A stretch of 32,000 nt of DNA, taken from positions 30,001 through 62,000 of the forward strand of contig CAZXEQ010000007.1 in assembly GCA_964640155.1 (NCBI GenBank). The letters run 5' to 3'. Positions 1 through 32,000 of the stretch are shown here, piece after piece. This DNA comes from an uncultured bacterium. Lineage in GTDB: Bacteria; Auribacterota; JACPWU01. The translations under genes and the position numbers were made by a program. The notes beneath the pieces were generated by a model. It saw nothing but the letters and a program-made list of their open reading frames with translations. It did no database searches and was not told where the DNA came from. Numbering within the stretch: the stretch's first letter is position 1; every line of letters starts with the position of its first letter.

Positions 1-960
1 GTCAGACGACTTTTGCAAGAATCGCGAGCAGGTTCAGGAGGACCGGGAGAAAGACGTTCGCCAACTCCAGAAGATTTAGGTTCCATGGAAAGAGAAGATT
101 TTATTTATCCGCCCGGTTTAGGTCCCGATCCAATTAGACCTAGAGAAAGTGATATGGGGTTAGGCGTACAACCGTTGAGTCCAGATGCACTGCAGCAAGC
201 AGACCGTATCCAGCCAGGCCGTCCAGAGGGTTCGGGTCTTGTAGAACCCATTCGAACAGAAAATATTCTTCAATATCAAGTGACACCTTTGGAGGGTCGT
301 GATGGCGACTTGACTCCAGGAGGAGCAGGTTTTCGGATGATTCAAGAAGATACAGGTTCTTTGGGGTCAGGATTAGGAGATTGGAATTTAGGAGGTGCTG
401 ATTTTCAAATGGGAGGACTGGAAGACTCAAGGAATTTGGGAACAAGTGTTTCTCTTTTAAATCTTTTAATTTCTGGTTTAGAGAGATCTCCATCACAACC
501 TGATTTTCAAATGAATCGTTTGATAGATGAAAGTCGAATGACGGTTCGAGAAGGCTTAAGAGGTCCAGATATCAGTGGAGTAGAAATTCCTGATCGTGGC
601 AGTATTGAATTGTCGGGAGATATTTTACACCTTATGGCGGGTGGCTTAATGGATAGCAGAGGATTGGGTGCAGATATGACTTTAGGAGTAGCAGGAGCAG
701 GGTTTGGTTTGGGTATTTTCAATTTTGAAAATGCGACACGTCAGACAGGATCTACGACAAGAACATCAACAATTAATTTTGTTTCTTTATTTCTTTTAGG
801 CCCTGAGCCTTTACGAGGTGAACGTGGAGGATGGGAGGATTTTCGTGGAGAACAAGAGCAAGAAGGTGCTGAAGGAACGCCTGAAGAAATACAAGAACAG
901 CCTGCCATATTCTCAAGTCGTACTGAAAGACAAGAAGGGAATCGACATATTGTTACTGAA
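1..960 (+). other. Acidic Gly/Pro/Glu-rich low-complexity segment of the giant ORF with degenerate short repeats. Probably disordered.
   Basis: The translation includes PPGLGPDPIRPRESDMGLG and SGLGDWNLGGADFQMGGLEDSRNLG, followed by QPDFQMNRLIDESRM, then GGLMDSRGLGADMTLGVAGAGFGLG, and finally RGEQEQEGAEGTPEEIQEQ. DFQM occurs twice and L-x-D-[SE]-SR occurs three times. There are no Lys and no Cys codons. Confidence 0.5.
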
Positions 961-12900: not shown

Positions 12901-15900
12901 ACAGTTGAGAGGATGACCAAAAATATCGAAGATATCGGTAGTTGGTACCAAGCTCATCGTGGACTTATTCCGGCTCAGAGATCTGCTGAAATTGACGCCT
13001 TACTTGCCATGCCCATTGATGGAGAACATGGCTTAGTGAATATTGATATTCAAAGTTTTACGGAAGAAGTTCGGGGAGTTGACAAGACGGGTGAAGATTT
13101 ACATGGCCGATACATGACTCCAGAGGTTTTAGGTCTTATTGATCGTACAGCTCAAGCTTTAAGAGACACTCCTTCTCTCTCAGGAATTCCGCAAGCACGA
13201 AGAGCTGAATTTGAAACAGCCCTGAATGCGAATCGTGCAGATATTTTAGGAAATTTAGCTGAAGTTCTTACCATTATTCGAGAACATCGAGACTTACCTG
13301 TCCAAGCGCTGGAGCCTACGCGTGTTGCTTTAAATAGAGAAGAGACGTTTAGACAAGTGGCAAACCGCTATGGCCAGGTTCAGTCCATGCGTGACGAGGC
13401 AAGTAGCTATGCTACTTATCAAACATCATCCATTCCTGATGCAACAATTCGTGGAGAAGTTCAGGCTGCTATTAATACCATTGGTAGAAATTTAAAATTT
13501 GCTGCAGATCGATATGGAGATGAACTCAATCGTGCATTGGAAGATCTTCTTAGTGGCGATTTTTCTCGAACTGAGCAATATCTTGGAAATCCAGAACAAA
13601 GACGTCGTGGTTCGCTAGATGTCTTAAAGGGTGAGTACGATTTGGCCGCAGATCATTTGTTGAGAAATGCCGGTAGAGCGGCCGAACTTTATCGCGCTTT
13701 GAACGCAACATCAACTGCTCGAACCACCGTTCAATGGAATGGCCGGCCGGTTACACGAGAAAGAGCTGGCAATATTTTAGCAGCTTTTAGAAGTGGAATA
13801 GGCTTAATGGCTCAAGGGTCTGATTCTTTAAGGCAATCAGATGACACAGTGCGTCATGCGGGTGTGGCTATTTTAGAAAGAGGAAATACAGGTGTCAGAT
13901 TCTTAGAATTAGGCGACCAATATATTCATACAAATGTTGCTACACAAGATCGAGGGCTTTATGAACGAGCCATGGGTCTTTTTGATCAAGGTTTGGCTTC
14001 TTATAATAGTTCTGTGGGTCGTTCTACTCCTTATGATTCAAGCATTATACAAAGAGTTTATCGGCTTTTGGGTGATGGACAGGGAATTACCGGTTTCCTT
14101 TCTTCAGCACGTACTTTATCCGATCTTTCAACAAGCCGTCGTGAACGTGTTTCAGCCCAAGATTTTGAACGTCTGGCTAGTGGTTTACATACAGCACATG
14201 ATACAGGTGCAGCTATTACCTCAGAAAATTATCAGGGGCTTTTGAGAACAGGACAAGATCTTGCAAATCGTGTTCGCGCCCAATATCAATTAGCTTTTGC
14301 AGCTTTGGGTGAACATGGATTAACTCGAGAAGTTACTGCTGTTTTTGATATTGCCGAAGGGATGGGAGAATTTACAGGTCGTATTGCAAGTCTTGCGGAA
14401 GGGATTCAGCATTTGACTCGTTTCTACAGCCCAGCCGCGTCCGATCAGTTTTCTGTTGTAATACGAGCGTCTGAAGTAACTCAAGATTTAAATGCGACTA
14501 CTGTACGAATGGCTGGATTTATCCGAGAAGGATTGGCTCAGACAACTTATCTGAGTACACGCTTCTTAGCTCAACCTGGAGCGATTGACGTTAAAGCTCT
14601 TCGAGAGGATCGACGTTATCAAGCCCTTGAGGGAGCTGTTCATAATGTTTCCGTAGGTCAGAGAATTTTAGAAAATGAAGCAAGGTTTAGCCAAGCGCCT
14701 CCAAGAGGTCTTGATCGCGGAATATCCATCGAAAGTGTGTTTTCTCAAGATTCTGCTCAAAGACTTGAAAATGCTCTTTCAAGAGTTCGTGCAACACCTG
14801 AGGAAATAGCCAGCTATCGATCTGTTTATAATGAAACGTTAAGATTTCATCGAGAATCTTTGCAGGCCTATGCTCGAGGGGATGTCAATAAAGCAGACAG
14901 TCTTTCTCAAGCGGCTGGAAAAGGATTCTCTATTCTTGAAGAGTTGACGGGTCTGGTTCGTGAGACTTTGACTGAACGAGGCAGTATCATTGCTGGAGAA
15001 TATGTTTCAACAGAACCCAGGGGAGCGCAAGGGGTTTCTGTACGGACTTATTGTTCTACAGCTCCGTTGGCTTTGGCCAAGGTGAGATATTTGAATGTTG
15101 CTGTCGCTTCGTTTATGGCTAGAAATTATGATCGCATTGAAGATTTTACGGCTGCTTTTAGAGAGGCTTATCGGGAAGGTCGTGAAATATTGAGGGCCGA
15201 ATTTATACGTGCAGGTCGCGTTGAGCTTAATATTATGCGTACGACCGATCGCGAAGGAACTGTCACCTGGCAGATTCAATCAGGCCGACAGGGAATTCAA
15301 CGTTATCTGGATCGAGGTGGAGAAGGTCTAAGAATTTTAGCTCGCGGTCTGACGCGGGAAGCAGTTGGACAATTCCAAGGTGTGGTGGTTCATTATTTTA
15401 ATAATATCGATCAAGCCCGCAGGGATTTAAGAACCACAGAACAGACGCATACTTCCGTTGAAAACTTAAGAAATCTAGGACCGCGACTTACGACTGAAGA
15501 AACAGCACTGAATCAAGGGAAAGCTAATATTGTTGATTCAAGATTAACTCATGAGAGAGTTCTGAATCGTCGTGCTTTGGCTTTATTGAATGATGGACGT
15601 TTTAACGAATCAGATAGAACTTTAAGAATTTTGAGCACTTATCAACATATTACTGCGACATTCATGAATGCAACAGCTAGACGATCAACTACAGGTGGAG
15701 TAGAACTTATCTACAGTGGAAGTAATAATTTAAAAGATCTCAATGGTCATAAATTACCTCCAGACCAAGCGATTGTTTTAGCTAGGGAAAATGCAGATCA
15801 TACCATTGTTTATGCTCCTGAAGCTCGTACACAGTTAGCTCAGATGCAAACAACTTATTTAGCTCAACACTATACTTTGAATGATCTTTATCATTCATCA

Positions 15901-18900
15901 GCTTTTGCAGTTTTAACCTATGTAGTAGCGATGGCCAATTTAGAAGACGCTGTTGTTCGGGGAGATGATGTAGCAGCTCAAGAGGCCTCAGCTCAAGCTG
16001 ATGCTTGTGCCAATCCTTCTGATGAATCGGGGCTTATTGCGTCTGCAATGGCGCGTGAAGGTTTGGGAGAACTCAATAAGGGGACCAATGCGGTTCTTTT
16101 TGATGTAGACGGGGGTCCCCATAATATCGCAGGCGTTCTTCAAGATTTGGATCAAAGATTTGAAAGAGGCATTCAGCTTTTTGTGGATAGACAATACGAC
16201 AGAGCTTCTTCTGAGTTCAGGGAAATCGGACAGAATTATCAAACTTTGACAGCTTATGTAAATAACTTTGGTCAATTGGATGAAACAGGATTCAGAGAAG
16301 GTCAAGGCAATATGCAGTCCATACGCAGGTTGTTAGCGACCTTGAATATCACGGTTCCAACGGGACCTCTTCAAATCACACCAGAGCTTATCACTCAGGT
16401 TCTTCGTGCTTGGGAATCCAATCCTGCTCATGAAAGCAATCTTGTTCTTAAAGCAGGCTTAGTTCGCTTCACAATGCTTGTTCATATTCGACAAGGAATG
16501 GCCCATTTACAAACAGCTCGTGAAGCCATGATGCGTGGAGATTGGATTTCGGCTAGACACTCGACCACAAGGGCTACGCTTTCTCGGGAAAATGTGCAGG
16601 AAAGAGAACGTACGCTGCGAAATGACACTCTTCAAAGAGAGTTTTATGAAGGTTGGGATGAGCAAGTTGGAGGAAACACTGTTCATCATAAAGGCTTTAA
16701 TGAAATACGAGATGAGATTGCTCGTGAGCAGTCCACCTCGTCTACAACACTTTCTGAAAGAGAAGCCTTAGGCGAGAGATTAGGACTAGGACAAGGGGCG
16801 GTGATTAGAAGTGGAACGTTGGCGAATTTGCGTAGCAATGCAGCTGCAAGAAATGCGGCAGTGGAAACCTTGTCCGTTCGGGCAGGAGTCATTGGACTCT
16901 TAAATTCAGAATTAGGAGCACGAGGTCGTATCTTAAATTCGCTGAATACTCTTCTTTCTCGGGATCATCTCACAACGGCTCAAATGGATAGAGCTGATCG
17001 TATGTTGGGAGTCGTTTCAGTTTCAAGGGATAGGGCTAATTCTATTGATCAAGCTTATAGCGAGGGGCGCATACGACTTGATCGTACTCATACCGATGAG
17101 GAAGGGCATGTTGAACGTAACTATACAGACAGGACAGCTCGTGGACGCCTTGTAATCGATCTGCGTGATCCCAGTGGGCAGTCGGTTCAAATTGAATTGG
17201 CTCAAGTTCGTTTCGGGGTTTCTCAGAGGGAAGGTGTGAATCAATGGGTTAATTTTGGGGTCAATCCTTCAGGGGTTGGAACAGGTGATGTCACAGCGAT
17301 AGGAAATGCAATGGCCCCATTTGCCTTTAATGCTCAGATGGATCAGCTTGGAAGCTCGGCCTATCTTTTCCTTCAAAGAGAATTAAATTTTACTCAGGTT
17401 TTCCAACAAGGGGAACAACATGGATGGGAAACAGTTCCTCTTCAGTCCTTTGATAAGCTTAACGCTTATAACAATGCCTTTAATGCTGTTTCAGCCAGAG
17501 ATCAGGTGACTTTTGCTGCAACGACAGGACATCCAATAGCGGTAGGAGCGATTACGACGGCTGTCGCAGAAGTGACGAGTTCACAAGCCTATCAAAATGC
17601 GGCTTCTCTTGCGCGACAGGGAGCCATGTTCATTATGTTGGGTAATTTTAAAGCAGCTTCAAATATTTATCAGGAAGTAGCTTCTCAATATCAGGAGATG
17701 GGGACGTATGAAGTTCAGCGAAGCGCAAATATTCAAAGACAAGATGCTTTGAAAGCGGAAGTCATTAATAATCCTCATGGGAAGACAGCAGAGGCGCTTC
17801 GTTCATTAGGTTTATTGGATGCGAACGGGCGTATTCAGTTTGGCTCCAACGGAAGTCCAGCCGCATTGAATCAATCTTTATCCCGTTTTTTACTTGTTCC
17901 AGATCTTGCCAATACAGCAAATGCAAACACGCTTTTGGGTGATGTTATTTCTCCTAGCACTGCAGGTCTGATTCGTACAAGTCTGACGCAACAAGGCCGC
18001 TTTTCTGAAAGTAATCTTCGAGATGCCCAAAATATGTTGGCAAGTTTGATCTTAACTCAGCGTTCTAATACGGAATTGACTCAGGCTTTAACTGCGATGA
18101 ATAGTGGAGATCATACGGCGGCAACAAAGCATATGGAGCATGCTCAAGTTCTTACCCAAGCTTCATCACATATAGCTGCATTAGTGGGTATCCCAACTGG
18201 TAGTTATCGAATGGGTTCTACAGGGCCTCTTCGAACGGCAACTCAGGTGGTTACAGCTGTTGTGGCAAAGGTACGTGAACTGATAAGCACAGACAGTGCC
18301 ACTCGAAGGGCTGAGATCAATGTAGAACTGGGTGCGATGCAAGCGGTCATTACAGCGAGGCAGACGGTAGATCAGGGGTTAGCAGATGCGCAGCGCACGC
18401 CCACCAGTGCAATTATTCAAGAGGCGACGCAAGGAGATCGCGAAGCTTTGATGAATTCTTTAGGGCTACAAGGAGAACAAAGAACAAATTTTGAACATTT
18501 GATTGAAAGATATATCGCTAATGAAGAAAGTGGGAAAGAGGCTACAGCGGTAGGTGATAGACGCCGAGAGTTAGAACATCAACGTTCTCAAATTGTGGAT
18601 CAAATTTCTCAAACAATAAGTCAAGCTTTGACAAGAATGAACATTAATAATGTGTCTGATTTGGAGCGCCATACTGCAGGACGACCTAATCATATGACAA
18701 TGCTGAGAAGTTTTGTACAGATTACAGAACTTCAAAGAAAAGTTGAGCGCGGAGAAACTTTGACTCAGGCAGATATCACGACCTTAAGAAATGCCGTGCA
18801 AAATTCGGCAAATGCAGGAACATCGCCAAGGGCTTTTTATGAGAGGTTTACAGATGGTGTCCAACATGGGTTTGGATCTGCTAGGCAAAGTCTTGTCAGT

Positions 18901-21900
18901 TCATGGAATAATCTTATCGCAGGTAACATTACCAGTGCTTTCAGAGATTTAGGTGTGACTTATGGAAGATATTTAAAAGCTGCGTTTTTGGATACATTCG
19001 TGGGTTATTTTCGACATGTTATTTTAGGTGGTGTCACAGAAGGCATTGGTTATGGAGCCCGTATGGTTTGGGGGCTTGGAAAATGGGCTGTGGCTTCTGC
19101 AACCGCTAATCGTCCGGATAATTTTGATTATTGGGTTTATGTTGAAGAAGGTAGAGACACGCGCGAAGTACAATCTACTGTTCTGGATACCTCAGGCTTA
19201 CGTGCTGCAGAAAAAATTTCTCGTTCGGGTCAAGGAGATACAGTGGGTATTGGAGGTCAAACCCTCGAAGAATTCATGAATAGCTCTCAAAGTTTAATGG
19301 ATAATATTCAAAGTCAGCAGGGCCAAATTGAAACTCTTCGTCGTCAGCCTATGACAGAAGCTAATCAGCAAGCCCTCACTTCAGCTTATATGGACCTTCG
19401 TATGACTGTCGGAAAATTTACTGATGGGCATTTAAGCTATCAGATTCATTCTGCGTTGGTCGATGCTCATTACGATAAAGTAGATGCTCAGAACCGCATT
19501 CGACATGAAGAATATCTAAATAATGGTAATGACACACGTTCTCTTCAGAATTTGGCTAATATGGCTCAAGAGGTTCAAGAGAATGGTCAAACAGCTTTAA
19601 ATACTCTTGCAGTAACGCGACAAGAAACTTCACGTGCCATGAATCTTCAGGAGATGGACAGTGCATTTTCAAGAGGTGAAGGTAGAGTGGGAGAATTTAT
19701 CGCCAATGCTCAAAGAGTGCATGGGCTTAATAATCTCATCACTCAGGCTTATGATATGACGAAAAGCCATGGCGGATTTATGGACCTTTATCTTGAATTT
19801 CAAGATGCTTGCACGGGATTTGATGCGCACAATGGAGCAGTTGCTTTACGTAGGTTGAGCACGCAGGCCGAAGGTATGCTTTCTACTTATCAAAGAACGC
19901 AAATCGTCAATCAAACTGCTTTTGAAGGCCTTTCATCAAGCATGCAGGATCGAGTGACTCAACTGAATGCAGCTATCAAGTCAGGTGAAACAAGATTTGC
20001 CATTGTGCAATTTGTTGTCATTGATGTTGGATTAACTTTAGTGACAGCAGGAGGAGGTTTGGGTATACGTGCGGCAATTAAGGTAGCTTCCGAAGCTGCA
20101 ATGGAATCTGTAGCAAGAAGACTAGCAACACAAGGTGTTGAAGTTATATTGAAGGATGGAGCTAGGATAGCAGCCAGAGATCTTGTGAAGGAAGTAGCCC
20201 AAATTGGTTTAGGAGATGTTATTCGGTCAGTAGCATGGCGTGAAGCAGTGAGAGCAGTAGGTACTTATGCGGGCCAATACGTGTTGGCTTTTGGGCGAAG
20301 CCTTTTTACCCATTATTTTGCTAAAGAAGGTGCTGTTCGACAAGGTTTGGAAAGATTAGGGAAAACGGTAGGCAGAGAGGCTGTTCCCCAAGGTGCAAGC
20401 CGTTTACAAAAAGTTTTGAGTCATTGGGGTGAGCAGCTTCAGCGTATCAATCCACTTCGCGGGGCAGGTGCTGGTTTTGAACGTTCAGGAGTGATTGAAT
20501 TATTGGGCTCCATGCGACATGGTGCTCACACGTTTGCGATGTTGGAATTCATTGGCCCCATTTTAAATCCGATTATGAATCATACTTTGAATCCTGTTCT
20601 CAATCTTGTTGTTGATTTAATGAATCGTGCTGGAATTCAAGTGGGTCATATGCATGAAGCTCCTTCTGTAAGTTTTGGACAGTTGATAACGCTCAGAGGC
20701 TTGGAAGCTCATTTAGGACGTGTGGCAGATGCCTATATGAGTGGTTTGAAAATGGGTCCTCTCTTTTCTTTTCAAATACCCGGCCATATTTTTGCCGTGG
20801 GAAGTGTAGGTTTTAGATTAGCGGCAGGGGGTTTTTATGGAGCACTTGAGCCGATGATGCGGCGCGTTGGAGCGCAGGCTTTGGGCAAATCTGTTTCTCA
20901 GGCGGTAAGAGGTGTTCTCTGGCCAGCAATTCGTAGAGAGGTTGAAGGAGGGGCAACAAAAATTCTTTGGGGTAGAGTCGCTCAACGTGCAGCTCTTTCG
21001 GTGATTACAGGTCCTCTTGCTATGAGTGGTTTTATGGCTCAACAGGTAAATGGTCTTCTGATGTTCAAGGTCGCGGAGGTGGGTGTTGAATTTTCAGTTC
21101 GAACATTCTTAGCGCTTTCAAATACAATTGGAGGAACGCAGTTCACAAGCGAACAGATAGAGCACATGGTCGCAACAGCGAAAGAATATTCTTTCCTATT
21201 GGTTCCAACGATGACCCGTCATATGGAATCTGGATTGGCAGCCATGCGATTTGCAGATACGATGCTAGAAGGTGTTCGTGGTCAGGATGGGTCTGTTCAA
21301 GTCCAATCGATGACTGAAAGAATTGCGAATAGAGTAAATGAAATGACGGGTGTTCTTACTGCTCATGTTACAAAGATGCATGAGGCTACAAATAGTGATC
21401 AGTTTAATGCTGCGAGTGAGGCTTTACGTGCGGAATTGGAAAAACAAGGTATTGAAGCACCTGCAGAGCTTCAACAAGCTGAAAATGCTTGGAGAGAAGC
21501 CCAAGCAAATTCAGTTGCTCCAAAAGAAGGTGAATCTCTTCCTGCTCCTAATCGAGAAGCAGCTAGAGCACCTAATCTCGATGCTTATAAAGAGCGCGTT
21601 TCTTCCTTGAATGAGCCTTTAAGAAGAGCCGTTGAAGAGGGAGGAACAAAAGATTTACGCTTGATTCAACATATTTTAGAAGGTAGAACGGGTGCTGCTG
21701 AGCAGATTTTAAATGATCTCTTATTATCTAGACCCGGTGATGCTATTTCTGCACTGCAAGGTGTGGCAAAACTTTTTGAAGCTGCACGTACTCACATGGA
21801 AGAATCTGGGATTCACATGAGTGCGGAAGCCTTTGTTCAAAGTGTAGATCCTGGAGGTAGCGTAAGACATTTAGTGGAAATAGCCGCTCGAGAAGGTTTG

Positions 21901-24900
21901 GCAAATGGTCCTCATTCAGAGTTGTTGTCTACGCTTACTCATATTATGGAAGCGAGCCGAATGACAGAGCGTAGTGACGAGCGTGGCATGCGAAAAGCAA
22001 ATGAAGCTTTATCTAAGCTTGTTGAGAGAGTTGACTCTGAATTGATTGGAGATGCTCAGAAAATTAATGATGAACGTGTAGGTGGAGCTGAAGAAAGAAA
22101 AACTAATCTTACAGAAGCTCAAGAGTTTGCAAATAGAGAAGCCGAACATATTTTAAATGTTCAAGAGGCAGCTAGGGCTGCTGCTGTTTTAGGAATGGAA
22201 TCTTCATATGCCATGTCTACGCATGAGAGAAATGCTCGAGAAATAGGAGAAGGCCGGTCTATCGTAGATCGTGCTTTATTGAATGAAAAAACAGGGGCTC
22301 GTTATGATCGCTTTGTGGCTGCTTCGAAAGAAGCTGTTCAAAGAAGTCGCGTATTTGATAAGGCGACAGGATCTCTTGCCTCAATTCCTTTTGCTCAAGT
22401 ATTAAGGGTTCATTTAGCAAATCCAGAAGGAGCACAAAGAAATATTGCTGCTGCTCGATTGCTTCAGAATCACGTACAAGGTTTAGTTGCAAAAGAGGGT
22501 GGAGCAGTACGTGTGGTAGTAGGTTTTGTCGCGGATGCTTTATCAAGATCTGGACGAGAAGGTGCTTTAGGCTCGGGAATGGGATTCCGTGATGGAACAA
22601 TTGGCATTGAAGGTCAAGAAATGATGGGTGGACAAAGGGGTGAATTAAGAACGGAGCTTCAAAAAACTTTGGCTGCTGTTTCTGAAGTCATGCGTCTTCT
22701 TGAATCTAACGGCGGCACCGTAACAGTGGGTGAATATCGACGTCTAATTGAAAAAGCTACTCCATCACAAAGAGACTTGATCAATGCCATGGTCGATGTG
22801 AGGTTAAGTGGAATTGAAAATGTTGAACAGGTTTTGGGTGAAGCTTCTGCTCGTTTGGGTGATCGATTAAGCGACAATCAAGACATGAATTATCTTTTGA
22901 ATGTTTCAGCCATTATAGGATTGAAAGAAACTGCTTCGCTTGCAGAAGTTGTTGAGACAGCCAGTAAAATTAAAGATTCAGAAGTGGTAGGAAGACTTCT
23001 TGGATTTGGAGATAATGCAAAAGCGGCTATGGAGGTTTTAAAATCCCTAACGGGTATTCGAAACAAAGCATTGGCTGAAGAGGTCGGAAGAACCAGCTTG
23101 GCCGATGTGAGAAGAGCGATTGGCTCAGGAGAATTAAGGTCCCTGATCCAGAATGCTTATCTTCGTTTGAGTGAAAGTTTGAAGGGAAATGAAAAGGCTT
23201 GGCAAGAAGCTTATCGTGAATCTACAGATATTGCGAGCTTGAATGAAAACAGCAAAATTTCTGAAATTGTAGCATTGGGTGAAAATGTTTTAGGTGAAGA
23301 TTTAGCTTATCGTTTGGCTGCAGAAAATGTCTTGTTTGTTATTGAGGGTGGAAGGGGTTTTAATCTATCTGCTACACGTGCTTTAGCTAAGGAGCTCGCT
23401 TCTCTTGTTGAAGGGGGTAGTTTGAACCGATTGTTGACCTTATCTGAGGTAACTGAATTGGCCGCAGTTCGTTCTGAGAATAAACAAAATGGCCATGAAG
23501 CGATGGTTGTTCGCATGGGTGAAATGTTAAGAGAAAGAACAACTGAGGCTCGAGCCATTTCAGAACAAACAGGGAAAGTGGTAGAGGCTCTTGTGCAATT
23601 GTCCAGAGAGCTTTCAAAACCTGGCGTGAGCGCAACCCAGCTTCATGTTGCAACGTTTATGCGCGTGGCCGCAGCTGCCGGACTCTCTTTAAGTTCTGTG
23701 ATTCTTTTAAGCAGCTCTAAAATCAGTGGAGCCGTGGCAAAATTGATTGAAAAAATGTTGAAAGGAACTTCGATCGAGCTTCTTACAGAAGGCGCGAGAT
23801 ACAAGATAGGAGAAACGACCTTAGAAACTTCAAGAGAAATTAGCTTGCAGGATATGGCTGATTTAATCGATCAATTTGCAGAGATGCCTTCTTCTTTAAG
23901 CCAAACTCAGCAAGATCGTTTGAATGTAATCAGTGAGACTTTGGGTAAAGAGCGAATGGAAAGAGACTCCAATGTTCAAGCAAGAGAACAGATGGAAGCA
24001 GATCTTCGTACTCTCGAACATAGACAAGAAAAGGGAAGTGCTGTAGAGGATACAAGAAGACAGATTCAGGAGTTGAATCAAAAGATTACGCAAGCCGATG
24101 GCAGAATTACAACTTTAGAAACAGAAAGCAGTGCCATCGTAACAAATGCTCAAGTCGATGCTTCTCTGAATGGCTTCTCTCGTCAAGTAAATGAGATCAG
24201 TGAATCTGTAGCGAGAGAAAGTGCGACCCGGGACATGAATGTTTTAGAAAGACAACAGTTGGAAGCGGAAGTTGGGGTTGCAGGAGGTAATAGAACTGAA
24301 GCTTTGGCCAAGATTCAGGAACTAAATCAAAAAATTACAGAAGCAGATAACAGAATTTCACATCTGGAAGCAAAAAGTCTTCAACTGAGTCGTTTCAGAG
24401 AACTGGGGTTAGAAGTGATTCGGGATATGTATCGAAGAATTGCTTCTGAATCAGCAACACTTTCAACCCTTGCGACGACACGTCAATATCGACAAGCTCT
24501 TGAGAGAATGCTGAGTGAAAGAGCTCCTCCGACGCAAGAACAAAAATTCGCGATTGCACTTGCCTTGCGTGAATCCCTTTTTGGAGGAAGGGATTCTATT
24601 GGCGCTCATGAAGCACAAGCCTACTTTGAAGTTGCTATGGAATTTTTATCTCCAGATGGCAAAGGCGGATTAAAACCTGCACAAAAAAGATTGTTTACAG
24701 AACTTCTTCTTGGGAATATTCCTGTGGTGGGCACCGGAGGTGGAAAAACCTTAGGTCTTGCGGCTTGGGCTGTGGCGCGTGCCTTAATGGATCCTACCGG
24801 TAGCCGCATGATCATCGTAGACACCGCTGCAGCATCAGGAAAGTATGCAAGTTCTGAGACAGAAGGGACCATAGGCGCTTCTTATGCAGAAGTCTTTAAA

Positions 24901-27900
24901 TTAGGAGGTCTTGAGGCTGTAGATGGAGATGCATTGGTCAAAGAGAATAATATTGAAAGATTGGTTGAAAAGTTGGAGTCTAGCAAGGCCACTGTCATTC
25001 TTAGTTTAGATGCATTAGGTCATTTGGGAAATCGCTTTGCAGGTGAATTGGGTGGACGTCTGAAAAGAGCTTTAGAGAGACAAGAAGCTGCTGTTGATGA
25101 AATTCAAAACTTGGCTACTCCCAATAGCTATATTATCTCAGGCTCAGGAAAACGTGTTACTTCAGCCCAAATCGAACGAATCACAAATTTAAGAAATCTT
25201 TTATTAGGTGAAGGTTGGATGACGGGAGTTGCTCGAGAAGGTACGCGTCTTCAACCTTTAGACATGGCACAATTTGAAAACGTGAGAGAAAATGCTGAGG
25301 TGAAAGCCTATGCAATTAATGAAAATACGGGTGAAGTCTTTATTAATAAAGGAGCGCTTGAAGCGCTGAAAGGTTTTACTACTTCTGAGATTAGCTCTGT
25401 GCTTAATGCAGAATTGGCGGACGGGCTTCATGATACTGTTGAAATTGATAATAATGGGACCATTCGTCCTAGAAGCGGTGGAAAAATGACCGATCAGACT
25501 TTGAGTGATTTTAATCGTGTCATTGCTTTGGGTTTGAAACTCAATGAATCACGAGCTGCAATGGGAGAAGAGGGAGCTAGAAATATTCCTGAAGTAAGGA
25601 TTGAAGAAATACAGATTAATCAAACGACTTCTCAAACTTCGATGGTAGAAATGATAGGCCTCTTTAGAAGCGTGGTGGGAACTACAGCAACACTTGGCCC
25701 TGAAGTGGAAGCCATTGTACAGGCTTATATGCGAGGAAAAATTGTTGATATATCTCCATCCGAATTTGCTCCTCGAGATTTCGTAAATATTTTACCCTCG
25801 GGTCAAACATTGGAAAGTATGGCCAGAAAGGCTGTGGGGGATTATTTTGAAACGGGTCGGGCTGTTTTAACAGGAGTTGTAGGGGCCGAGCAGACTCGAT
25901 TTGTGGAGCATGTTCGTGAGGCCTTTAGAGAAAGGATTAATGCAGAGGCTGTTTCCGAAGGTTTGACAGGAGAATCTCTTGCTCGCAGGGTGAGCGAAAG
26001 AATGGCAGCACTTGAAGGAACTGGGGGCACACTCAGAGTTATTGATGGAAGAACGGAGTCTAAAACGATTAATGACATCGCTAGAGATATTGGACCTAAA
26101 CGTCTCTTTGTTATAACCAATGAGCAAGGTTTTGTGGGGGTCGACTATAAAGGATTTAATGAAAAAGGGGGAGATCGCGGTATTAATCTTTACGCATGGG
26201 GTTCGGAAAGCTTAGGTGTTAATTTACTCCTTCAGTTGAAAGGAAGAAGCGGTCGAAACGATACCTCCACTGAGCGTTTTTGGTATGTAGATGATGCGGC
26301 CTTGGCCAGAAATTTAGGTGATGCCCGAAGTTATGCCCAAGATCTAATCGACAGTTGGAAGGGTTCTGCGTTTGAAAGACAAGCATTAGAGAAATTTAGA
26401 GATGGTCGAGAGATGGATCAAACAGAGCAATTGGTTGTTTCAAATATTTGGCAATCGGCTCTTGGCAAATCTCGCGCTTTGAAATTTATTGCAAGTGAAG
26501 TCAGTCGTTCTCGATTTACGAATGAACCTTTGAAAAATTTGAGAGATCGATTTACAGAAGGTTCTAAAGAATACAATATTATCAACAAACTTTATGAAGA
26601 GGTTCTCAATCCTGCTTCCGAACTTTCAGAATCTGCAGCCATTCATTTGGGAGATCGCTTCCGTTCAGGTCGAGAAATATTGGAAGACACAGTGTCAGGT
26701 GCACGAAATGATGCCATACGCGTTTTTGAAGTTTTGAGAGCGACGGAAGGACTTTCACCAGAAAGTTTGAGAACGATTGATGCCCATTTAGAAGCGCTTA
26801 AAGGTTTGGATAACTTGAGTGAGATTAGATCAGCAACGCGGCAGTCTTGGAGTGGTGCTCGAGATAATTTAAGAGACTATGTGGCAGCGACTTTAAGCCT
26901 TGCTGAAGGTGTATTGGCTTTTAGAGGTTTGACATCGCCTGAGAAGATGAGTGAAAGAGGTCAGAAAGTGGCTGCGGCTGAAACACGAGTTAGGGACGTT
27001 TTCACTGAAACTTCATCAGGTGGTAAGGTTCAAGCGACAGATGCAGAACTTCGAAGAGCAGGGGTCGAATTTGTGGATGGTGGGGCACGCGGTAGTGCGA
27101 CCTATTCAAAAGTTTATGCAACTCAGCAAGCCTATCAAGTAGCTCAAAATGATGAGCGAGATCAACAAACACGAGCTCTTCGAGATGTTCTTGCTCAAAT
27201 TCGAAGTGAGGCCGCAACACCTGCATGGCCTAAAGATGCAGCAGCTCGTACGGCAAGATTAACGGCCATTGCTACAGAACGTTCACAAAAAGCTGGAGCT
27301 ACGGATGTTAATGCTGCGGCGAGTGCTTTGGTTACGCAAGTTCAGTCTTATTTAAATACAGACAGTTCTGCATTGAGTGAAACGGGTCTTTCAGCAATTG
27401 CAAGTGTAACTCTTTCTCAGGTGATGGAGTCTGGGATTCAAAGTGGTGGACAAACGATTACCTGGTCTCAGGCAACAGATGCTCAAAGACAAATGGCGAT
27501 TGAGGGTGTAGCGAAGCAATGTAATGTGAAAGTTGATCAAGTGAGCAGTCTTCTCACTCAAGATCGATCCGAATTAAGAACTTCGCAAACCAGAAGAGTA
27601 GCTCAAGCTGCAGAAACATTCGCTCAATTTATGGAATCAGAAGATATTGAAGCGAGTTCTGAAAAAGATGTTTTAAGTAAGGCTATCGAGGTAGGTCGGC
27701 AAAACGGTCTTTCTATTGCTGAAGTTTTTACACTCCTTAATCCTACGCTTTCAGCAGAAGAAAGAGAATCTGCTTTGCGTAATCTTATCACAAGCCAAGC
27801 TTTGGAAGTTGCATCGATGAAAAACACTACCCCTGAAGAGCGTCAAGCCCTGTCTGAACGTTTGAATAGTTTAAATGCTCTTGTTGCTTATATCAAAGGT

Positions 27901-30900
27901 GGGAAGCAAGTAAATTCTCAGGAGGCGACAAATGTTTTATTCCAGAGCCTTTTGGATGGAGTCGCTTCTCAAAAACTTTCGTTAAAAGAACGTTATCAAG
28001 CCGCACGGGCTGTTTTGAAACTTTATCCTGTAGCAAAATCCATGGGCATGTCTGTTGATGCACGATTAGCTGTTTCAATGATTCAAGAAGCTATGACTTT
28101 TGCTCAGAACATTTCAACAACGGCAGAAGGATTAGGTGTTTTGGCTCAAATTGAAAATAATCTTCTATGCTGTATTGCAGAAGCCGCTCAGGCTTTAGCC
28201 GGCCAGAAAGTGGTGAGTATTGAAGTGGGCACTGTTTTGAAACAAGTAAGAGATATGATGAAAGAAGGGGCTAAGCAAGTTCGTGAGAAAGAACTTCAAG
28301 CAGCTCAGCAAAGTGCGAGTGAAGGAAAATTTGCAGCAGTGGCTTCCGCTTTAAGTAGAGCTGAATATGCTCAAGCTTTGACTGAACATGTGGAAGGAGC
28401 AGCTGCAGCTACAACAACCACAGGAACATCGACTTTAGACTATACAGAGTTTCAACAGGGAGTTGCTCCAGCTCTTTTAGATGTGATGGATAAGCCCATA
28501 TCCGATGAAGTTCAAGAAGGGCGAGAAGCACAAGTTCATGCGACAGTTGCAGGGAAGATGAAGAAGGCCAGGAAGCCTAAGAAAATCACGCTCTTGGCTG
28601 CTCGTTTAGCGATTGCTACTGAGGATAGATCCAAACAAGACGCCACAAATTTCTATGCAGATCAAAAAGTTGTCAAAATTCTTGAAACAATTGCTAAGCA
28701 GCAGGTAAGTGCTGTTCAAGAAACGGGGACAACTCAAGTCAAAGGTTTAGTAGATAAAGTTCTTTCTATCTTCAGAAGAGATGAGAAAAAACAATTTGTT
28801 ACAGAAGGTGCAGAACTGGTTCGTCGTCTTCAGGACCGCTTGAAAGAAATTAATCCTGAAACTCCTGAATATCAAGATATGGTTCGTCGCTATGCAGCCC
28901 AGATGAAATCCATGGTCATGGTGGGTGCTGCATCTGTTATTCGTGAAGCAGGGGCAGAATTAGGCGTTGTGAATGTGATTATGAAAGCGAAAGCTGATGG
29001 GAATAGTTATGATATTTTAATTCAACTTAAAGATGGTCGAGAACTTGAGTTAAACAAAGTTCTGAATGAAAATTCAGAACTATTTAAGTCTTCTGACGAG
29101 ATTCGTAAATTGAATGCGGCTTTGCGTTCAAAGATGAAAACGACTTTACCTGCCATTACTAAAGATTTGATGAAGCGTGTTCAAGACAATAAAGGAGAGA
29201 TCGATGATGAAACCATGTTTATGGCCACAGTAGCAGCCAATTTAGCCTATTACTTTGGAACAAAGGATCTAAGAACATTCCATCATACTCAGATGCTTTC
29301 TGGAAATCTTTTGGCGCGTGATTGCATCTTAGATATTGGAACAGGACAAGGGAAATCAGCAACCGCTATTATTGTGAATTATATTCGTGCTTTATCGGGT
29401 CGTACCTCCTTTCAGATTGTGACCACGGGAGATTTTGCTTTGGATAATATGAATGAAACCAAGCCAGCTTTCGATCTTTTGGGAATAGATAGTCGTGCTG
29501 TTCGTAGAAGTGAAGCGGATAAGATGAAGCATTTAGAAAATGAAGTGGAAAACCTTCGTTCTCAATTGGATGAATTAGCGACTTCTCATCAGAACATGAT
29601 GGGGTCGATGAATCAAACATTGGAGAGCTGGACCGCGAAATTGGCTGAGTTGCAAGGCAAGGCAGGCTTTGAAGCTCATGTAGAGAATCTGCAGAAGAAA
29701 GTCGAAAATTTGAAAGCTCTCATTCAACGTGCTTCAAGTGTGACTGAGATAGATGAAGCCTTGAGGGCCGATATTGCAAGAGATTATTTGCTTGAAAAAG
29801 AGATGAGCGATTTAGATCGAGAAGATGAAGCTTTGGGGCAAGATAATAAGACTCAAGAGGCTTTGGGTAAAGTAAGAGATTTGGCTCCTATTCTGATGAA
29901 AAGGTTTGATGCGAAGAAGAAAGAGTTAGAGATGACGCCTGGTCAAGAAGAAGCTATTGCAGAGATAGATGCACAACGTCAAGCCTTAGAGCAGCTTCTA
30001 ACTTTGAAAAAAGGCCGATTAAATGAATTGCCAGAAGAGTTAAAAAATGAAGCAGCTTTGAATGAATGGAAAGATCGGCTTAAAAAAGTTCTTAAGGATG
30101 AAGAGTTGGCTTCTCGTCTTACTTTCATTATTGAGCCTCTTCTCAAACAAATTCATCTTTCAGATCAGAGAAAAAATCTTAACCAGATTGCAGAACAATT
30201 GGGAAATAAAGATAAGTCAACTAGGGCCAGAATAGAGGCTTTTGAAGCAAGTCTAAATCAGAGAATTACTGAAAAAGAAGCGGCTATCGAAGCTCTTAGA
30301 GAATTAGAAAATAAAGGTATGGAAGCTAAGCGGCTTGCTTTTACTGCTCCTGGTGTGACCTATATTGGCATTGGAGATTTGGCTTTTGAAAAATTAGGCG
30401 ATCGCGCTCGTAAACTCAGTGAGAGATTCTTCCCTCAAGGGGGCAAGAAGCTTCATAAAGCCAATGTGGATGAAGTGGATAGTGTTCTTGAGGATCAGGC
30501 GTTGATGGATTATGTGATGGCGCAACCTTCAGGAGACTTAAGTGCTATAGAGAAAGAAATGTGGACTTTTGCTGGAAGTGTATCAGAAGAAATAAGACCT
30601 TTTGGACTCGAGAGAAAAATAGGACTTCAAAAGGAAGAGATTCAAGCACAAGAGACAGAACAAGTTGTTGGGGCAAAGCTTACTCTTTTCACCAAGGATA
30701 AAAATAACGATGTCTTAAGATTGACCAAGGCGGGCCGTCAAAGAGCCATGGACGCTTATAATGTGTTACGTCAAAAAATGATGGGACGCAAAGAACTTCC
30801 TTCTATGCCGGAGTTTATCAAGATGGTTGAAAAATCATTGAAAGCTCGTGAGCTTCGAAAGAGAGGCGAAGATTATGAAATAGATGATGCCAGCGGTAGC

Positions 30901-32000
30901 ATTCGATTGATTGAAAAAACAACAGGAGGTATCAATGATCGTCGTGATAGTGCCTTAGGTATTGCCTTGGATGTTTTGAATTCGGATCGTGTAAGGACAT
31001 TAGGTGATAATCGTACCAGTGCTAAGATCAGTGGTGGAGACGTGATTAAGGAACTTTTTGAAGGATTCAGCGGATACAGTGGATCTGTCGATACACGTGA
31101 AGCCAGAAAAGAATTTGAAAAAGGATTTGGAAAGAAGAGTACTCAATTTGTCAGAATTCCTAATTATTCTGCAAGTAAACGCAATATTCTTGCTCCGAAA
31201 ATTTTCAAAAACGATAATGCAGCACAAGCTTGGTTAGAAGAACAGGCGAGAGAAGTTATGCAGCATACGACTGCGATTATCACTTTACGAAGTGTTAAAC
31301 AAGTCGAAGATTTAGCCGCTAAAATGGAAGGGAAAAAAGAATTTAAAGGTAAAGTTCTTATTTTTAGAGGTTCAGAAAATGATGAACAAAGACGTCTGCT
31401 TTTAGCTCAAGCCAGTGAACCAGGTTATGTTTTAATACAAACTATGATCGGGGGTCGTGGAACAGACTGGGGCTTGGCTGATTTTGGATTAACAAAGGAG
31501 ATGTTGGATGAGGCTTTAAAAGGAAAGGGTCTTTCTGAAGGTTTAAGAAAAGCTCAGTTGGATCAATTAGAGGGTATAACCAAGAAATTAGCAGGAAACA
31601 CAGCTAAATTGACACCTGCTGAAGTCACTCAAGCTCGGAATATGAGTCAGACAGAGTTGCAGTCGCAGGATGATCGCTTGAACGAGCAGGTAAATTTTCT
31701 AGAAGAGTTTAATAAGACAGGCGAATCTCTTGATCAAGCCTTAGAGACGGCAAGAAAACAGAAAGGGCTGGCTGAAAAAGCTTTTAATGCTGCGTCTGCT
31801 AATGCTGCGCCTGCGGAAATTAAAGTGGAATTATCGTTAGGGCGTTGGCTTGCTTCTCGACGACTAGAGGTTTTAGAAGCACTTCAGAAATCAGGTCAGT
31901 CTGTGAATGAAGAATTAAAAAATGCAAGAGAAGCAAAAGAAAAGGCTAGCAGAAAACTTCTTGTTCGTGATTTAGAAAAGTTTTTTGAAAATCTTACAGA
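1..32000 (+). CDS. Internal fragment (partial at both ends) of a giant multidomain protein with at least 10,666 codons. It contains YD/Rhs repeat blocks, two hydrophobic clusters, long helical regions and two SecA-like ATPase modules.
   Basis: Manual codon-by-codon translation of frame +1 found no stop codon from nt 1 to nt 32000. For unbiased sequence, (61/64)^10666 is about 1e-222. All other frames are fragmented, with a longest ORF of 339 aa. Codon structure is clear, with a strong G at codon position 1 and A/T-biased third positions. Recognisable protein motifs (YD repeats, Walker A/B, SecA motifs) all fall in this frame. No start or stop lies inside the window. Confidence 0.93.
3307..3363 (+). 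other. Isolated hydrophobic segment (candidate transmembrane or buried helix) inside YD block I.
   Basis: The translation is FSALTSIGAIFIAVAMGGA, 19 uncharged residues, flanked by polar sequence (EEAQHAAN upstream and SSPGRFMNSLINSRND downstream). Confidence 0.35.
5560..6540 (+). other. Non-YD insert of about 325 codons within YD block I. It looks alpha-helical and its function is unassigned.
   Basis: YD motifs are absent here. The composition changes to Ala/Leu/Met/Phe-rich helical sequence, for example MYAAIRQYLMNDSGWLRG, MMTQLLVMILSNIRDN, FFTRILNEAFQRIFGASISVASLAEIANALAGY and HFRSMMQFMWFGAGIGFLEDLLGQL. It contains the CSTRTGHC loop at 6106-6129. YD-like sequence resumes at about 6600 (FVRDSFGRE). 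Confidence 0.4.
7555..7800 (+). other. Ser/Thr/Gln-rich low-complexity linker directly upstream of hydrophobic cluster I.
   Basis: The translation runs RTQSTSTANGQQTSTSSITRS, then TQSNSSSRSTDEDVGSTSHSNTYSQT, then QTRTESQQTSQQYDN. Confidence 0.5.
7846..8313 (+). other. Hydrophobic Gly/Ala-rich cluster I, with 3-4 candidate transmembrane segments.
   Basis: Three segments stand out:
- FWLRIASAVAGTIIGCPICFSLLIEAAILVV (7846-7938)
- WAVLMAFANVALSAAGSAIGGSNLLAGGFAF (7975-8067)
- AFLSGLINAVIMAPVSALGSAASGG (8239-8313)
An amphipathic stretch, RIAAQTAISLATNTAEQLIGGIVRIYV, lies between the second and third. This is hydropathy judged by eye only. Confidence 0.6.
8400..11040 (+). other. Helical region I of the giant ORF. 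No enzymatic motif recognised.
   Basis: The sequence is Ala/Leu/Arg/Gln/Glu-rich and poor in Pro and Gly, with amphipathic periodicity, for example RFRAQLRDLATAFNNLLNQFNN and RTLTQQYQTMLQNHPEMRAQMAEFGQLLDAINDCM. There is a TPR-like GDWGEA at 9085-9102. Confidence 0.5.
11041..12870 (+). repeat. YD/Rhs-type repeat block II, about 600 codons.
   Basis: The YD-type motifs in this block are LYDAETGGSA, RYDDRGVPQQISFTNRDGSSRD, ERDSQGNVLQTRSYSDTRGRALD, EYDWTGRRLSG, RRDAQGKVMGVEGHD (from 12229), TYDAGLITSIDH and RYNDRGQPVARTIYRTENG. The Thr/Arg/Gly/Asp-rich composition returns here. Confidence 0.7.
12900..19980 (+). other. Helical region II, about 2,350 codons, with recurrent isolated TPR-like hairpin signatures.
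   Basis: The composition is predominantly helical. The G-[DN]-aromatic/hydrophobic-x-x-A motif, preceded by a hydrophobic helix end, recurs at:
- GDFSRT 13555-13572
- GDVNKA 14878-14895
- GRFNES 15595-15612
- GDDVAA 15961-15978
- GDWISA 16537-16554
- GNFKAA 17641-17658
- GDHTAA 18106-18123. Confidence 0.5.
19996..21075 (+). other. Hydrophobic cluster II, with several candidate transmembrane or membrane-associated segments.
   Basis: Four segments stand out:
- FAIVQFVVIDVGLTLVTAGGGLGI (19996-20067)
- FAMLEFIGPILNPIMNHTLNPVLNLVVDLM (about 20533-20622)
- LFSFQIPGHIFAVGSVGFRLAAGGFYGAL (about 20761-20847)
- AALSVITGPLAMSGFMAQQVNGLLMFKVA (20989-21075)
This is hydropathy judged by eye only. Confidence 0.55.
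21230..24600 (+). other. Helical and coiled-coil region III. No enzymatic motif recognised.
   Basis: The sequence is Ala/Glu/Leu/Arg-rich and helical. Lys content starts to rise here. It contains the tandem duplication listed separately. Confidence 0.45.
23929..24378 (+). repeat. In-frame tandem duplication of a coiled-coil unit. There are two copies with a period of about 267 nt (89 codons).
   Basis: - Copy 1: ISETLGKERMERDSNVQAREQMEADLRTLEHRQEKGSAVEDTRRQIQELNQKITQADGRITTLETES (23929-24129)
- Copy 2: ISESVARESATRDMNVLERQQLEAEVGVAGGNRTEALAKIQELNQKITEADNRISHLEAKS (24196-24378)
The cores IQELNQKITQADGRITTLE (24064-24120) and IQELNQKITEADNRISHLE (24313-24369) are near-identical. They are also visibly similar at the DNA level. 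Confidence 0.7.
24601..26295 (+). other. SecA-like motor ATPase module 1, with an NBD1 - PPXD-like - NBD2 arrangement.
   Basis: The motifs are co-linear with E. coli SecA:
- LFTELLLGNIPVVGTGGGKTLGLAAWAVARAL matches [35 protein letters not shown] (Walker A GTGGGKT at 24730-24750).
- SRMIIVDTAAASGKYA matches [16 protein letters not shown].
- AAVDEIQNLATPNSYIISG matches [22 protein letters not shown] (Walker B at 25093-25107).
- HDTVEIDNNGTIRPRSGGKMTD matches [24 protein letters not shown].
- NQTTSQTSMVEMIGLFRSVVGTTAT matches [26 protein letters not shown] (GTTAT at 25678-25692).
- QLKGRSGRNDTSTERFWYV matches [20 protein letters not shown] (26233 onward). Confidence 0.8.
26296..29208 (+). other. 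Helical linker between the two SecA-like modules. Its first part may correspond to a SecA helical-scaffold-like region.
   Basis: The composition is helical. The sequence directly after motif VI is RFWYVDDAALARNLGDARSYAQDLIDSW, and a little further on NIWQSALGKSRALKFIASEVSRSRF. It occupies the position of the SecA scaffold helix, but the similarity is weak. A GKFAAV TPR-like motif lies at 28324-28341, and the basic patch KKARKPKK at 28561-28584. Confidence 0.4.
29209..32000 (+). other. SecA-like motor ATPase module 2, truncated by the 3' end of the window before motif VI.
   Basis: - LRTFHHTQMLSGNLLARDCILDIGTGQGKSATAIIVNYIRALSGRTSFQIVTTGDFALDNMNETKPAFDLLGID matches [73 protein letters not shown] (Walker A GTGQGKS at 29338-29358).
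- VTYIGIGDLAFEKLGD matches ITYGTNNEYGFDYLRDN.
- HKANVDEVDSVLEDQA matches [16 protein letters not shown] (VDEVD at 30466-30480).
- GEDYEIDDASGSIRLIEKTTGGINDRR matches [26 protein letters not shown].
- FSGYSGSVDTREA matches [13 protein letters not shown] (31069-31095).
- YVLIQTMIGGRGTDW matches AVTIATNMAGRGTDI (GGRGTD at 31450-31467). Confidence 0.88.
29491..30345 (+). other. Lys/Glu-rich coiled-coil insertion of about 285 codons that splits NBD1 of SecA-like module 2.
   Basis: It lies between the LLGID strand (ends at about 29490) and the VTYIGIG motif (from 30355). E. coli SecA has only about 18 residues at this position. The sequence is heptad-like and charged, for example KMKHLENEVENLRSQLDELATSHQNMMGSMNQTLESWTAKLAELQGK, then LQKKVENLKALIQRA, then ITEKEAAIEALRELENKG. 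Confidence 0.6.

Follow-up and report, generated by a model that had tools for sequence, protein, structure and literature searches.

For bacterial polypeptides of tens of thousands of residues, synthesis, folding and export pose an open problem, and SecA-like domains embedded in such polypeptides are currently the sole direct clue to a dedicated export of giant proteins. The question is raised by a stretch of 32,000 nucleotides from an uncultured bacterium of the Auribacterota (GenBank assembly GCA_964640155.1, contig CAZXEQ010000007.1, positions 30,001 to 62,000 of the forward strand), referred to here as the window. An earlier note, made from the letters of this DNA, had placed two SecA-type motor modules, here called module 1 and module 2, inside one giant open reading frame (ORF). 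Are the two modules related to SecA, are they copies of one another, and what could such motors do within a giant protein? Our analysis leaves little doubt that both modules are SecA-like in identity. It also favors, as the probable though by no means secure reading, a giant membrane-associated protein of the Omnitrophota type that carries membrane-tethered SecA-like polypeptide motors.

Both modules lie within one stop-free reading frame

Frame +1 contained 0 stops across 10,666 codons, and the other five frames contained 444-866 stops each. Since frame +1 is stop-free and runs off both ends, the window lies within a single giant gene. Both motors were found inside this single frame of at least 10,666 codons, with no gene boundaries of their own, as the earlier note had described. 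Residues (aa) are numbered below from the first codon of the window.

1..31998, plus strand: stop-free ORF of 10,666 codons, open at both window ends (stop count)
24541..26319, plus strand: module 1, cryptic SecA-like motor with N-terminal helices, first nucleotide-binding domain (NBD1), an insert resembling the preprotein-crosslinking domain (PPXD) and second nucleotide-binding domain (NBD2), aa 8181-8773 (profile and model)
29080..31998, plus strand: module 2, recognisable SecA homologue with an insertion-bearing NBD1, PPXD and NBD2 up to motif V, aa 9694-10666 (Pfam, phmmer, hidden Markov model)

Module 2 resembles SecA at the sequence level

Module 2 was matched in Pfam by SecA_DEAD (3.7e-21) and by SecA_PP_bind (8.7e-6; 26.7 bits against a gathering score of 23.5), and P-loop_SecA reached 22.1 bits, below its cut-off of 27. 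Among PDB sequences, phmmer aligned it colinearly with Escherichia coli SecA (1.7e-17), with SecA residues 73-140 lying over Walker A and motif Ia and residues 152-503 over motif Ib, Walker B, PPXD, motif III and NBD2 as far as GRGTD. In addition, our own SecA hidden Markov model (HMM) matched aa 9694-9836 and 10107-10493 with an E value of 1.1e-28, and the best database relatives were ordinary SecAs with ~25% identity. Judged by its sequence, module 2 is a clear SecA homologue, and the SecA_DEAD match, the SecA_PP_bind score above gathering and the alignment with E. coli SecA all bore out its description as a SecA-type motor. The window ends after motif V of this module, and motif VI and the C-terminal part lie outside it. 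The features of module 2 are as follows.

29338..29358, plus strand: Walker A GTGQGKS (aligns with SecA TGEGKT)
29509..30318, plus strand: insertion of 270 aa in NBD1, between motifs Ia and Ib, aa 9837-10106 (gap between SecA-matching stretches)
30460..30498, plus strand: Walker B ANVDEVDSVLEDQ, including VDEVDS (SecA alignment)
30685..30945, plus strand: PPXD core, aa 10229-10315 (the SecA_PP_bind match; aligns with SecA PPXD)
30868-30984, plus strand: PPXD string EDYEIDD...TTGG..DRRDS (motif location)
31066..31095, plus strand: motif III-like FSGYSGSVDT (SecA alignment)
31435..31473, plus strand: motif V IQTMIGGRGTDWG, including GGRGTD (SecA alignment)

The NBD1 insertion is rich in Glu, Lys, Leu, Ala and Gln and coiled-coil-like, and its Pfam matches were confined to weak ones to SKA2, Med9 and FlaC_arch. 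We know of no equivalent insertion at that position of NBD1 in canonical SecA. A stalk, a dimerisation element and a regulatory arm are conceivable roles for it.

Module 1 points to a very divergent SecA-like motor

As a single sequence, module 1 found nothing in Pfam even at E <= 10, and nothing in NCBIfam or among PDB sequences. An exhaustive search with HMMER through 1.84 billion representative proteins yielded 10 relatives; these are fragments, or stretches from within proteins of 1.3-7 thousand residues, and were combined in alignment A1. Those with a taxonomic name all belong to Candidatus Omnitrophota, including Ca. Gygaella obscura. The closest relative showed 56-58% identity, and the overall identity of the A1 relatives to the window sequence was 22-25%. 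Scanned one by one, the relatives gave weak matches to DEAD, ResIII and Helicase_C_2 only.

When the A1 family profile was compared with PDB sequences, the top six matches were SecA or SecA2 (2e-5 to 1.3e-4), and the next, a DEAD helicase, followed at 0.054. Alignment of the module 1 profile with that of 24 canonical SecAs by hhalign gave a probability of 96.9% and an E value of 1.3e-10 over 363 columns, running colinearly from Walker A through the PPXD and motif III into NBD2. Furthermore, an AlphaFold2 model of module 1 (predicted local distance difference test, pLDDT, 76.8) was searched against the PDB with Foldseek. The top 32 matches were all SecA or SecA2, the best at 1.5e-15, and the first other protein was XPD at 2.6e-7, so that SecA led the next helicase by ~8 orders of magnitude. 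Because the profile-against-PDB, profile-profile, insert-alone (described below) and model searches all point to SecA, module 1 is read here, from sequence and predicted structure, as a SecA-like motor of very high divergence that includes a PPXD-like clamp domain. The earlier note had named two findings that would count against SecA, namely no SecA match at all or best matches to generic DEAD-box helicases lacking the PPXD. At the single-sequence level module 1 did lack a SecA match, and it was the profile-profile and structure comparisons, together with the motifs conserved in the family, that sustained its description as a SecA-type motor. A generic DEAD or XPD/DinG-type helicase was considered for module 1 and rejected, with SecA first in both the profile-against-PDB and the Foldseek search and the insert mapping to the PPXD.

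Every motif that had been listed for the two modules was located; those of module 1 are given here with their conservation in A1.

24730..24750, plus strand: Walker A GTGGGKT; GK(T/S) in 8/8 A1 sequences covering the site
25087..25110, plus strand: Walker B AAVDEIQN; D186 and E187 nearly invariant
25126-25149, plus strand: IISG-like strand (motif location)
25129..25638, plus strand: PPXD-like insert in the motif II-III interval, model residues 197-366 (DSSP, hhalign, insert-alone search)
25672..25698, plus strand: motif III VVGTTATLG; G380 invariant, T384 nearly invariant
26107..26154, plus strand: motif V region FVITNEQGFVGVDYKG, including TNEQGFVGVDY, GRGTD not kept; E528 and G530 nearly invariant
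26230..26262, plus strand: motif VI LQLKGRSGRND; Q565, R569 and R572 conserved

The motif VI region aligned to SecA NQLRGRSGRQGD with high posterior confidence. It had been observed previously that GRGTD is intact in module 2 only, and this was confirmed: module 1 has the motif V-like TNEQGFVGVDY where module 2 has GGRGTD.

The PPXD is a polypeptide clamp and a SecA-specific addition to the helicase core. In the module 1 model the insert comprises ~170 aa on a beta stem, which DSSP assigned as strands E197-205 leading out and E358-366 leading back. Searched alone, without any ATPase motif, the insert found SecA residues 261-348, which are the PPXD, with a score of 29.5 (E 0.0048), and 20 column-shuffled controls scored 17.3 at most. 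In addition, the non-ATPase residues I308, P310 and G314 of the insert were conserved in A1. The PPXD evidence is weaker for module 1 than for module 2. Taken together, the colinear hhalign alignment and the insert-alone match in module 1 and the SecA_PP_bind match of 26.7 bits in module 2 support the claim that both modules keep a PPXD-like insert.

With very long branches and very low identity to SecA, one or both modules might be decayed relics, serving as non-enzymatic structural spacers in a fast-evolving giant protein. The lost GRGTD signature of module 1 and motif III of module 2, which reads SGYSGS versus the usual GMTGTA, would fit such decay. However, motifs I, II and VI have kept their catalytic residues (motif VI checked in module 1), and in A1 these are the most conserved columns; conserved there are GK(T/S) of Walker A, DE of Walker B, motif III, the motif V E/G and the motif VI Q/R/R. 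Such conservation at ~25% overall identity is what purifying selection on ATPase function should produce, and we regard decay as very improbable.

The two modules represent separate SecA-like lineages

The earlier note had taken the motor to be duplicated. BLASTP between module 1 and module 2 found nothing (E > 2), and the module 1 profile reached module 2 around Walker A only, with an E value of 0.018, whereas each module is separately detectable as a relative of canonical SecA. Since the modules show no detectable similarity beyond Walker A and are each related to canonical SecA, a recent duplication is ruled out. As far as sequence comparison can tell, two deeply separated SecA-like lineages are joined in one chain, with no visible tandem duplication.

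Neither our own SecA HMM nor the precomputed Pfam annotation revealed a module 2-type region in any of the module 1 relatives. Three of these relatives are Omnitrophota proteins of 4,235-7,074 aa without a Pfam SecA annotation: P0127 (L003 10001-28966), P0130 (L004 10001-31223) and P0125 (L001 2085-14792). P0127 has an N-terminal Peptidase_C39 and no other Pfam annotation. P0130, from Ca. Gygaella obscura, is encoded directly downstream of two T2SSF genes, and its Pfam domains are HATPase_c and Response_reg; P0125 has no Pfam annotation. The module 1 type thus stands alone in large Omnitrophota proteins that would be scored as SecA-less, and Pfam-based surveys therefore probably under-count such motors, with one whole clade invisible to domain databases.

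A scaffold-like helix is predicted after module 1

SecA docks on SecY and pushes the chain by means of its scaffold, wing and two-helix finger. The segments between the two motors are as follows.

26293..26910, plus strand: helical tail of module 1, model residues 585-790 (extended AlphaFold model)
26911..29079, plus strand: linker of ~720 aa between the modules, rich in Ala, Gln, Ser and Thr and partly helical (composition, model)

The extended model, which covers aa 8181-9100, had a predicted TM-score (pTM) of 0.69, and pLDDT in the tail was about 72-92 except for a disordered gap at residues 691-705. A helix of 42 residues (nt 26419-26544, aa 8807-8848) was predicted with good confidence and is followed by more helices up to about aa 8970. 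On extending the module 1 model, the Foldseek alignment with full-length SecA grew from ~640 to ~880 columns, and the target-normalised TM-score against SecY-bound SecA (5eul_A) rose from 0.39 to 0.52; with truncated SecA-N68 as the target, the alignment stayed at 675 columns. SecY-bound conformations of SecA were the best matches of the extended model. The 42-residue helix may correspond to the helical scaffold of SecA, as far as the model indicates. SecA_SW (PF07516) had no match in module 1 or in any relative, and the profile of the tail aligned to SecA by hhalign with an E value of 0.71, which gives the scaffold no sequence support. The SEC-C zinc motif (PF02810) had no match after module 1; it is missing from some genuine SecAs too, and we give this little weight.

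SecA-derived ATPases could also have been repurposed to unfold or remodel the giant protein's cytoplasmic portion, to pull on it mechanically, or to act on nucleic acid in the manner of superfamily 2 (SF2) helicases. Scaffold, wing and two-helix finger escaped detection by sequence, divergence is extreme with no NCBIfam SecA match, GRGTD is lost in module 1 and a large coiled-coil-like insertion sits in NBD1 of module 2, all of which would suit such a change of function. SecA-like helicase-related domains are also found in large Amoebophilus effector proteins (PMC3482391). However, the PPXD is retained with conserved residues in both modules, the modules come directly after candidate membrane anchors, and the extended model is closest to SecA in its SecY-bound conformations. 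On this balance we consider repurposing quite unlikely.

The linker had no relatives at E <= 0.001 and no Pfam match, and pLDDT of the extended model was low after residue 795, that is, into the linker. Long linkers of low model confidence and without relatives around the modules would suit a polyprotein, in which the ORF is cleaved and the modules are released as soluble or membrane-attached SecA2-like ATPases acting in trans; the missing gene boundaries would then be only apparent. Cleavage of giant proteins has been argued from their widespread protease domains (West-Roberts et al., 2023; bioRxiv 10.1101/2023.11.21.568195), and the module 1 relative P0127 carries Peptidase_C39. Neither a protease domain nor a recognisable cleavage motif turned up within the window, however, and we hold a polyprotein to be unlikely; it would be compatible with tethered SecA-like motors rather than exclusive of them.

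Comparison with known systems

The earlier note had not recognised the arrangement as a described system, which proved incorrect. West-Roberts et al. (2023), who set the threshold for giant proteins at > 30,000 aa, reported that in most giant genes of Omnitrophota, and in some of actinobacteria, the encoded protein has membrane anchors followed, near its C-terminus, by divergent SecA DEAD and preprotein-binding domains without the Pfam scaffold/wing domain. These domains form a long-branched clade apart from the normal SecA of the same organisms, and a role in exporting the giant protein itself or accessory proteins was proposed. Among the long proteins of Omnitrophota, a PF07517 architecture cluster of 20 proteins has also been described (Nielsen and Lui, 2026). 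The basic arrangement is thus already in the literature and nothing published is overturned.

The protein in the window shares with the giant Omnitrophota proteins a very long single ORF with candidate membrane segments, SecA_DEAD and SecA preprotein-binding matches after the candidate anchors, and the lack of a Pfam scaffold/wing match. Its position 'towards the C-terminus' is relative, with the true C-terminus outside the window. Also as in that class, the named module 1 relatives are Omnitrophota proteins, one with Peptidase_C39 and another beside T2SSF genes. In contrast to the proteins of West-Roberts et al., two motors without detectable mutual relation stand in tandem here, and the module 1 clade is invisible to Pfam and NCBIfam and also occurs in large proteins without an annotated SecA domain. 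Further differences are the scaffold-like long helix that the predicted structure of module 1 suggests is kept, the 270-aa NBD1 insertion of module 2 and the absence of any detected enzymatic domain of the Archaeovorin or Dockerin types in the 10,666 aa. Three features appear to be new, namely the heterologous tandem, the Pfam-invisible module 1 clade with its possible scaffold helix and the NBD1 insertion. One chain can evidently carry two very different motors, and the claim that such motors lack a scaffold may not hold for the module 1 clade.

Like canonical SecA (PDB 2FSF, 1TF5, 5EUL), the modules have NBD1, a PPXD inserted in NBD1 and NBD2, with motifs I, Ia, II, III, V and VI; module 2 shows significant sequence similarity and module 1 profile and structural similarity. 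Unlike canonical SecA, which is a stand-alone protein of ~900 aa, both lie inside an ORF of at least 10,666 aa and are at most 25% identical to it. No SecA_SW or SEC-C was detected here and no NCBIfam SecA model matched; a large insertion interrupts NBD1 of module 2, and GRGTD is lost from module 1.

The accessory SecA2/SecY2 system serves serine-rich giant adhesins, and SecA2 is also mycobacterial and clostridial. Like SecA2 (PDB 4UAQ, 6SXH), the modules would be extra divergent SecA paralogues for particular, often very large surface proteins, and SecA2 structures were among the top structural matches of module 1. We found no evidence of a specific relatedness to SecA2 clades, and SecA2 is a separate gene product, whereas the motor here is fused to its presumed cargo. 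In the 'Hodor' megaplasmids, giant surface proteins of > 7,000 aa are encoded beside SecY, SecG, SecE and trigger factor genes of their own (bioRxiv 10.64898/2026.02.21.707213). Giant proteins accompanied by their own Sec machinery support the idea of a private export capacity for giant cargo. There, however, the channel subunits are separate genes in another lineage and the cargo bears signal peptides, in contrast to the fused SecA-like motor considered here.

A possible role of the modules in export

The position of the modules relative to the membrane was considered with a simple Kyte-Doolittle hydropathy scan (19-residue mean), which yields candidate segments. Candidate helices were found at aa 1103-1121, 2628-2646, 2660-2678, 2747-2765, 6666-6684 and 7885-7903, and the last two are listed here.

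19996..20052, plus strand: candidate transmembrane helix FAIVQFVVIDVGLTLVTAG, aa 6666-6684 (Kyte-Doolittle mean 1.98)
23653..23709, plus strand: last candidate membrane segment ahead of the motors, aa 7885-7903 (Kyte-Doolittle mean 1.68, weak)

The motors do lie downstream of these candidates; the 'membrane segments' of the earlier note, by contrast, came down to a few candidate helices from a simple hydropathy scan. Both modules sit after the last hydrophobic candidates, where the lysine content returns to normal. Because ATPases need ATP, and because of this position and the normal lysine content, we infer that the part downstream of the last candidate, with its two ATPase modules, is cytoplasmic.

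We propose that a giant gene encoding at least 10,666 aa of a membrane-associated protein, of the type described for Candidatus Omnitrophota, would hold two membrane-tethered motors. Each has the SecA-specific layout, a two-lobed DEAD-like motor with a domain of the preprotein-crosslinking type inserted between motifs II and III, and would most likely clamp and push polypeptide chains. The Walker A lysine and the Walker B Asp-Glu are retained in both modules, and the motif VI arginines in module 1. The motors might then constitute a private, accessory-Sec-like export engine that serves the giant protein, other copies of it or partner proteins, and would probably feed the housekeeping SecYEG channel. 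ATPase activity, a polypeptide substrate and the use of SecYEG are extrapolated here from the sequence. We regard a role of the modules as export motors as a reasonable possibility, though somewhat less likely than not.

Several points weigh against tethered SecA-like export motors. Module 1 is 12-17% identical to SecA and has no Pfam or NCBIfam match, and its model was built from an 11-sequence alignment with pLDDT 74-77. Both modules were unmatched by the NCBIfam SecA models (E <= 0.01). Scaffold, wing and two-helix finger are suggested by the model and are undetectable by sequence, the candidate membrane topology derives from a simple hydropathy scan, and the putative enzymatic role is read from sequence and models. 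Furthermore, more than 8,000 codons of the gene precede the motors, which are therefore made last and can give no help to co-translational export of their own N-terminus; self-export could therefore proceed only post-translationally or between copies.

A more specific idea, which we put forward tentatively and with considerable doubt, is that module 1 belongs to an unrecognised SecA-like clade with a scaffold-like tail, scattered in large Omnitrophota proteins including supposedly SecA-less ones, and that here it would be paired with module 2 as a built-in hetero-dimeric self-export engine. The analysis defines expressible modules for translocase tests, aa 8181-8970 and aa 9694 onward.

The part of the protein ahead of the motors

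Most giant proteins consist of repeats or known enzymatic domains, and a domain-free part of ~8,000 aa is unusual. For the ~8,000 aa upstream of module 1 (window 1-24540, aa 1-8180), searches of Pfam, NCBIfam and PDB sequences gave no match, and chunked BLASTP found no internal protein repeats at E <= 1e-3. The Rhs-type repeats that the earlier note had placed upstream of the motors were accordingly not recovered, as aa 1-7800 gave neither a Pfam/NCBIfam match nor a YD motif nor internal repeats at that threshold. The DNA of the window has a G+C content of 0.40-0.45 and a steadily positive GC skew, shows no tandem repeats of note and matched nothing in Rfam. The only sizeable antisense ORF (11938-12957) had no meaningful family match and is probably a shadow of the giant ORF.

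A composition rich in Gly, Thr, Ser, Asn, Asp and Val, with Tyr also present, marks the first 2,500 aa and aa 3500-4500 and suggests a beta-rich extracellular structure; the sequence between and after these stretches is rich in Ala and Leu. A hydrophobic cluster of three helices (aa 2628-2765; with its flank, window 7882-8700, aa 2628-2900) is directly followed by 9 Lys in aa 2784-2894, the sole local lysine concentration of the N-terminal part, where there may be a short cytoplasmic loop. Between the last hydrophobic segment and module 1, aa 7904-8180 (window 23710-24540) are coiled-coil-like. The short motif QELNQKIT(Q/E)AD(G/N)RI is repeated there at aa ~8022 and ~8106, and a weak further match joins aa 7973-8000 and aa 8062-8089 (46% identity over 28 aa, E 0.01).

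Lysine is scarce in the first 7,000 aa (window 1-21000), with 63 in total (0.9%), 9 of them in the first 2,500 aa. Lys-free runs extend up to 567 aa in this lysine-poor N-terminal part, and Arg stays at 8-11%. The lysine content then rises along a gradient to about nt 28500, from ~4% in aa 7000-9500 to 9-10% in the module 2 region. Third-position G+C is 0.29 in the lysine-poor and lysine-normal parts alike, and the depletion is therefore not an effect of base composition. The module 1 relatives are biased in the opposite way (Lys 3-18%, Arg 0-7%). Neither giant-gene paper (West-Roberts et al., 2023; Nielsen and Lui, 2026) mentions lysine composition, and the nearest published concept is the 'lysine desert' (PMC10665810). 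The lysine-poor N-terminal 7,000 aa may be an adaptation of the exported portion, a giant lysine desert; possible reasons are that the exported part is shielded from proteases or chemistry directed at Lys, or that high pH has called for an adaptation.

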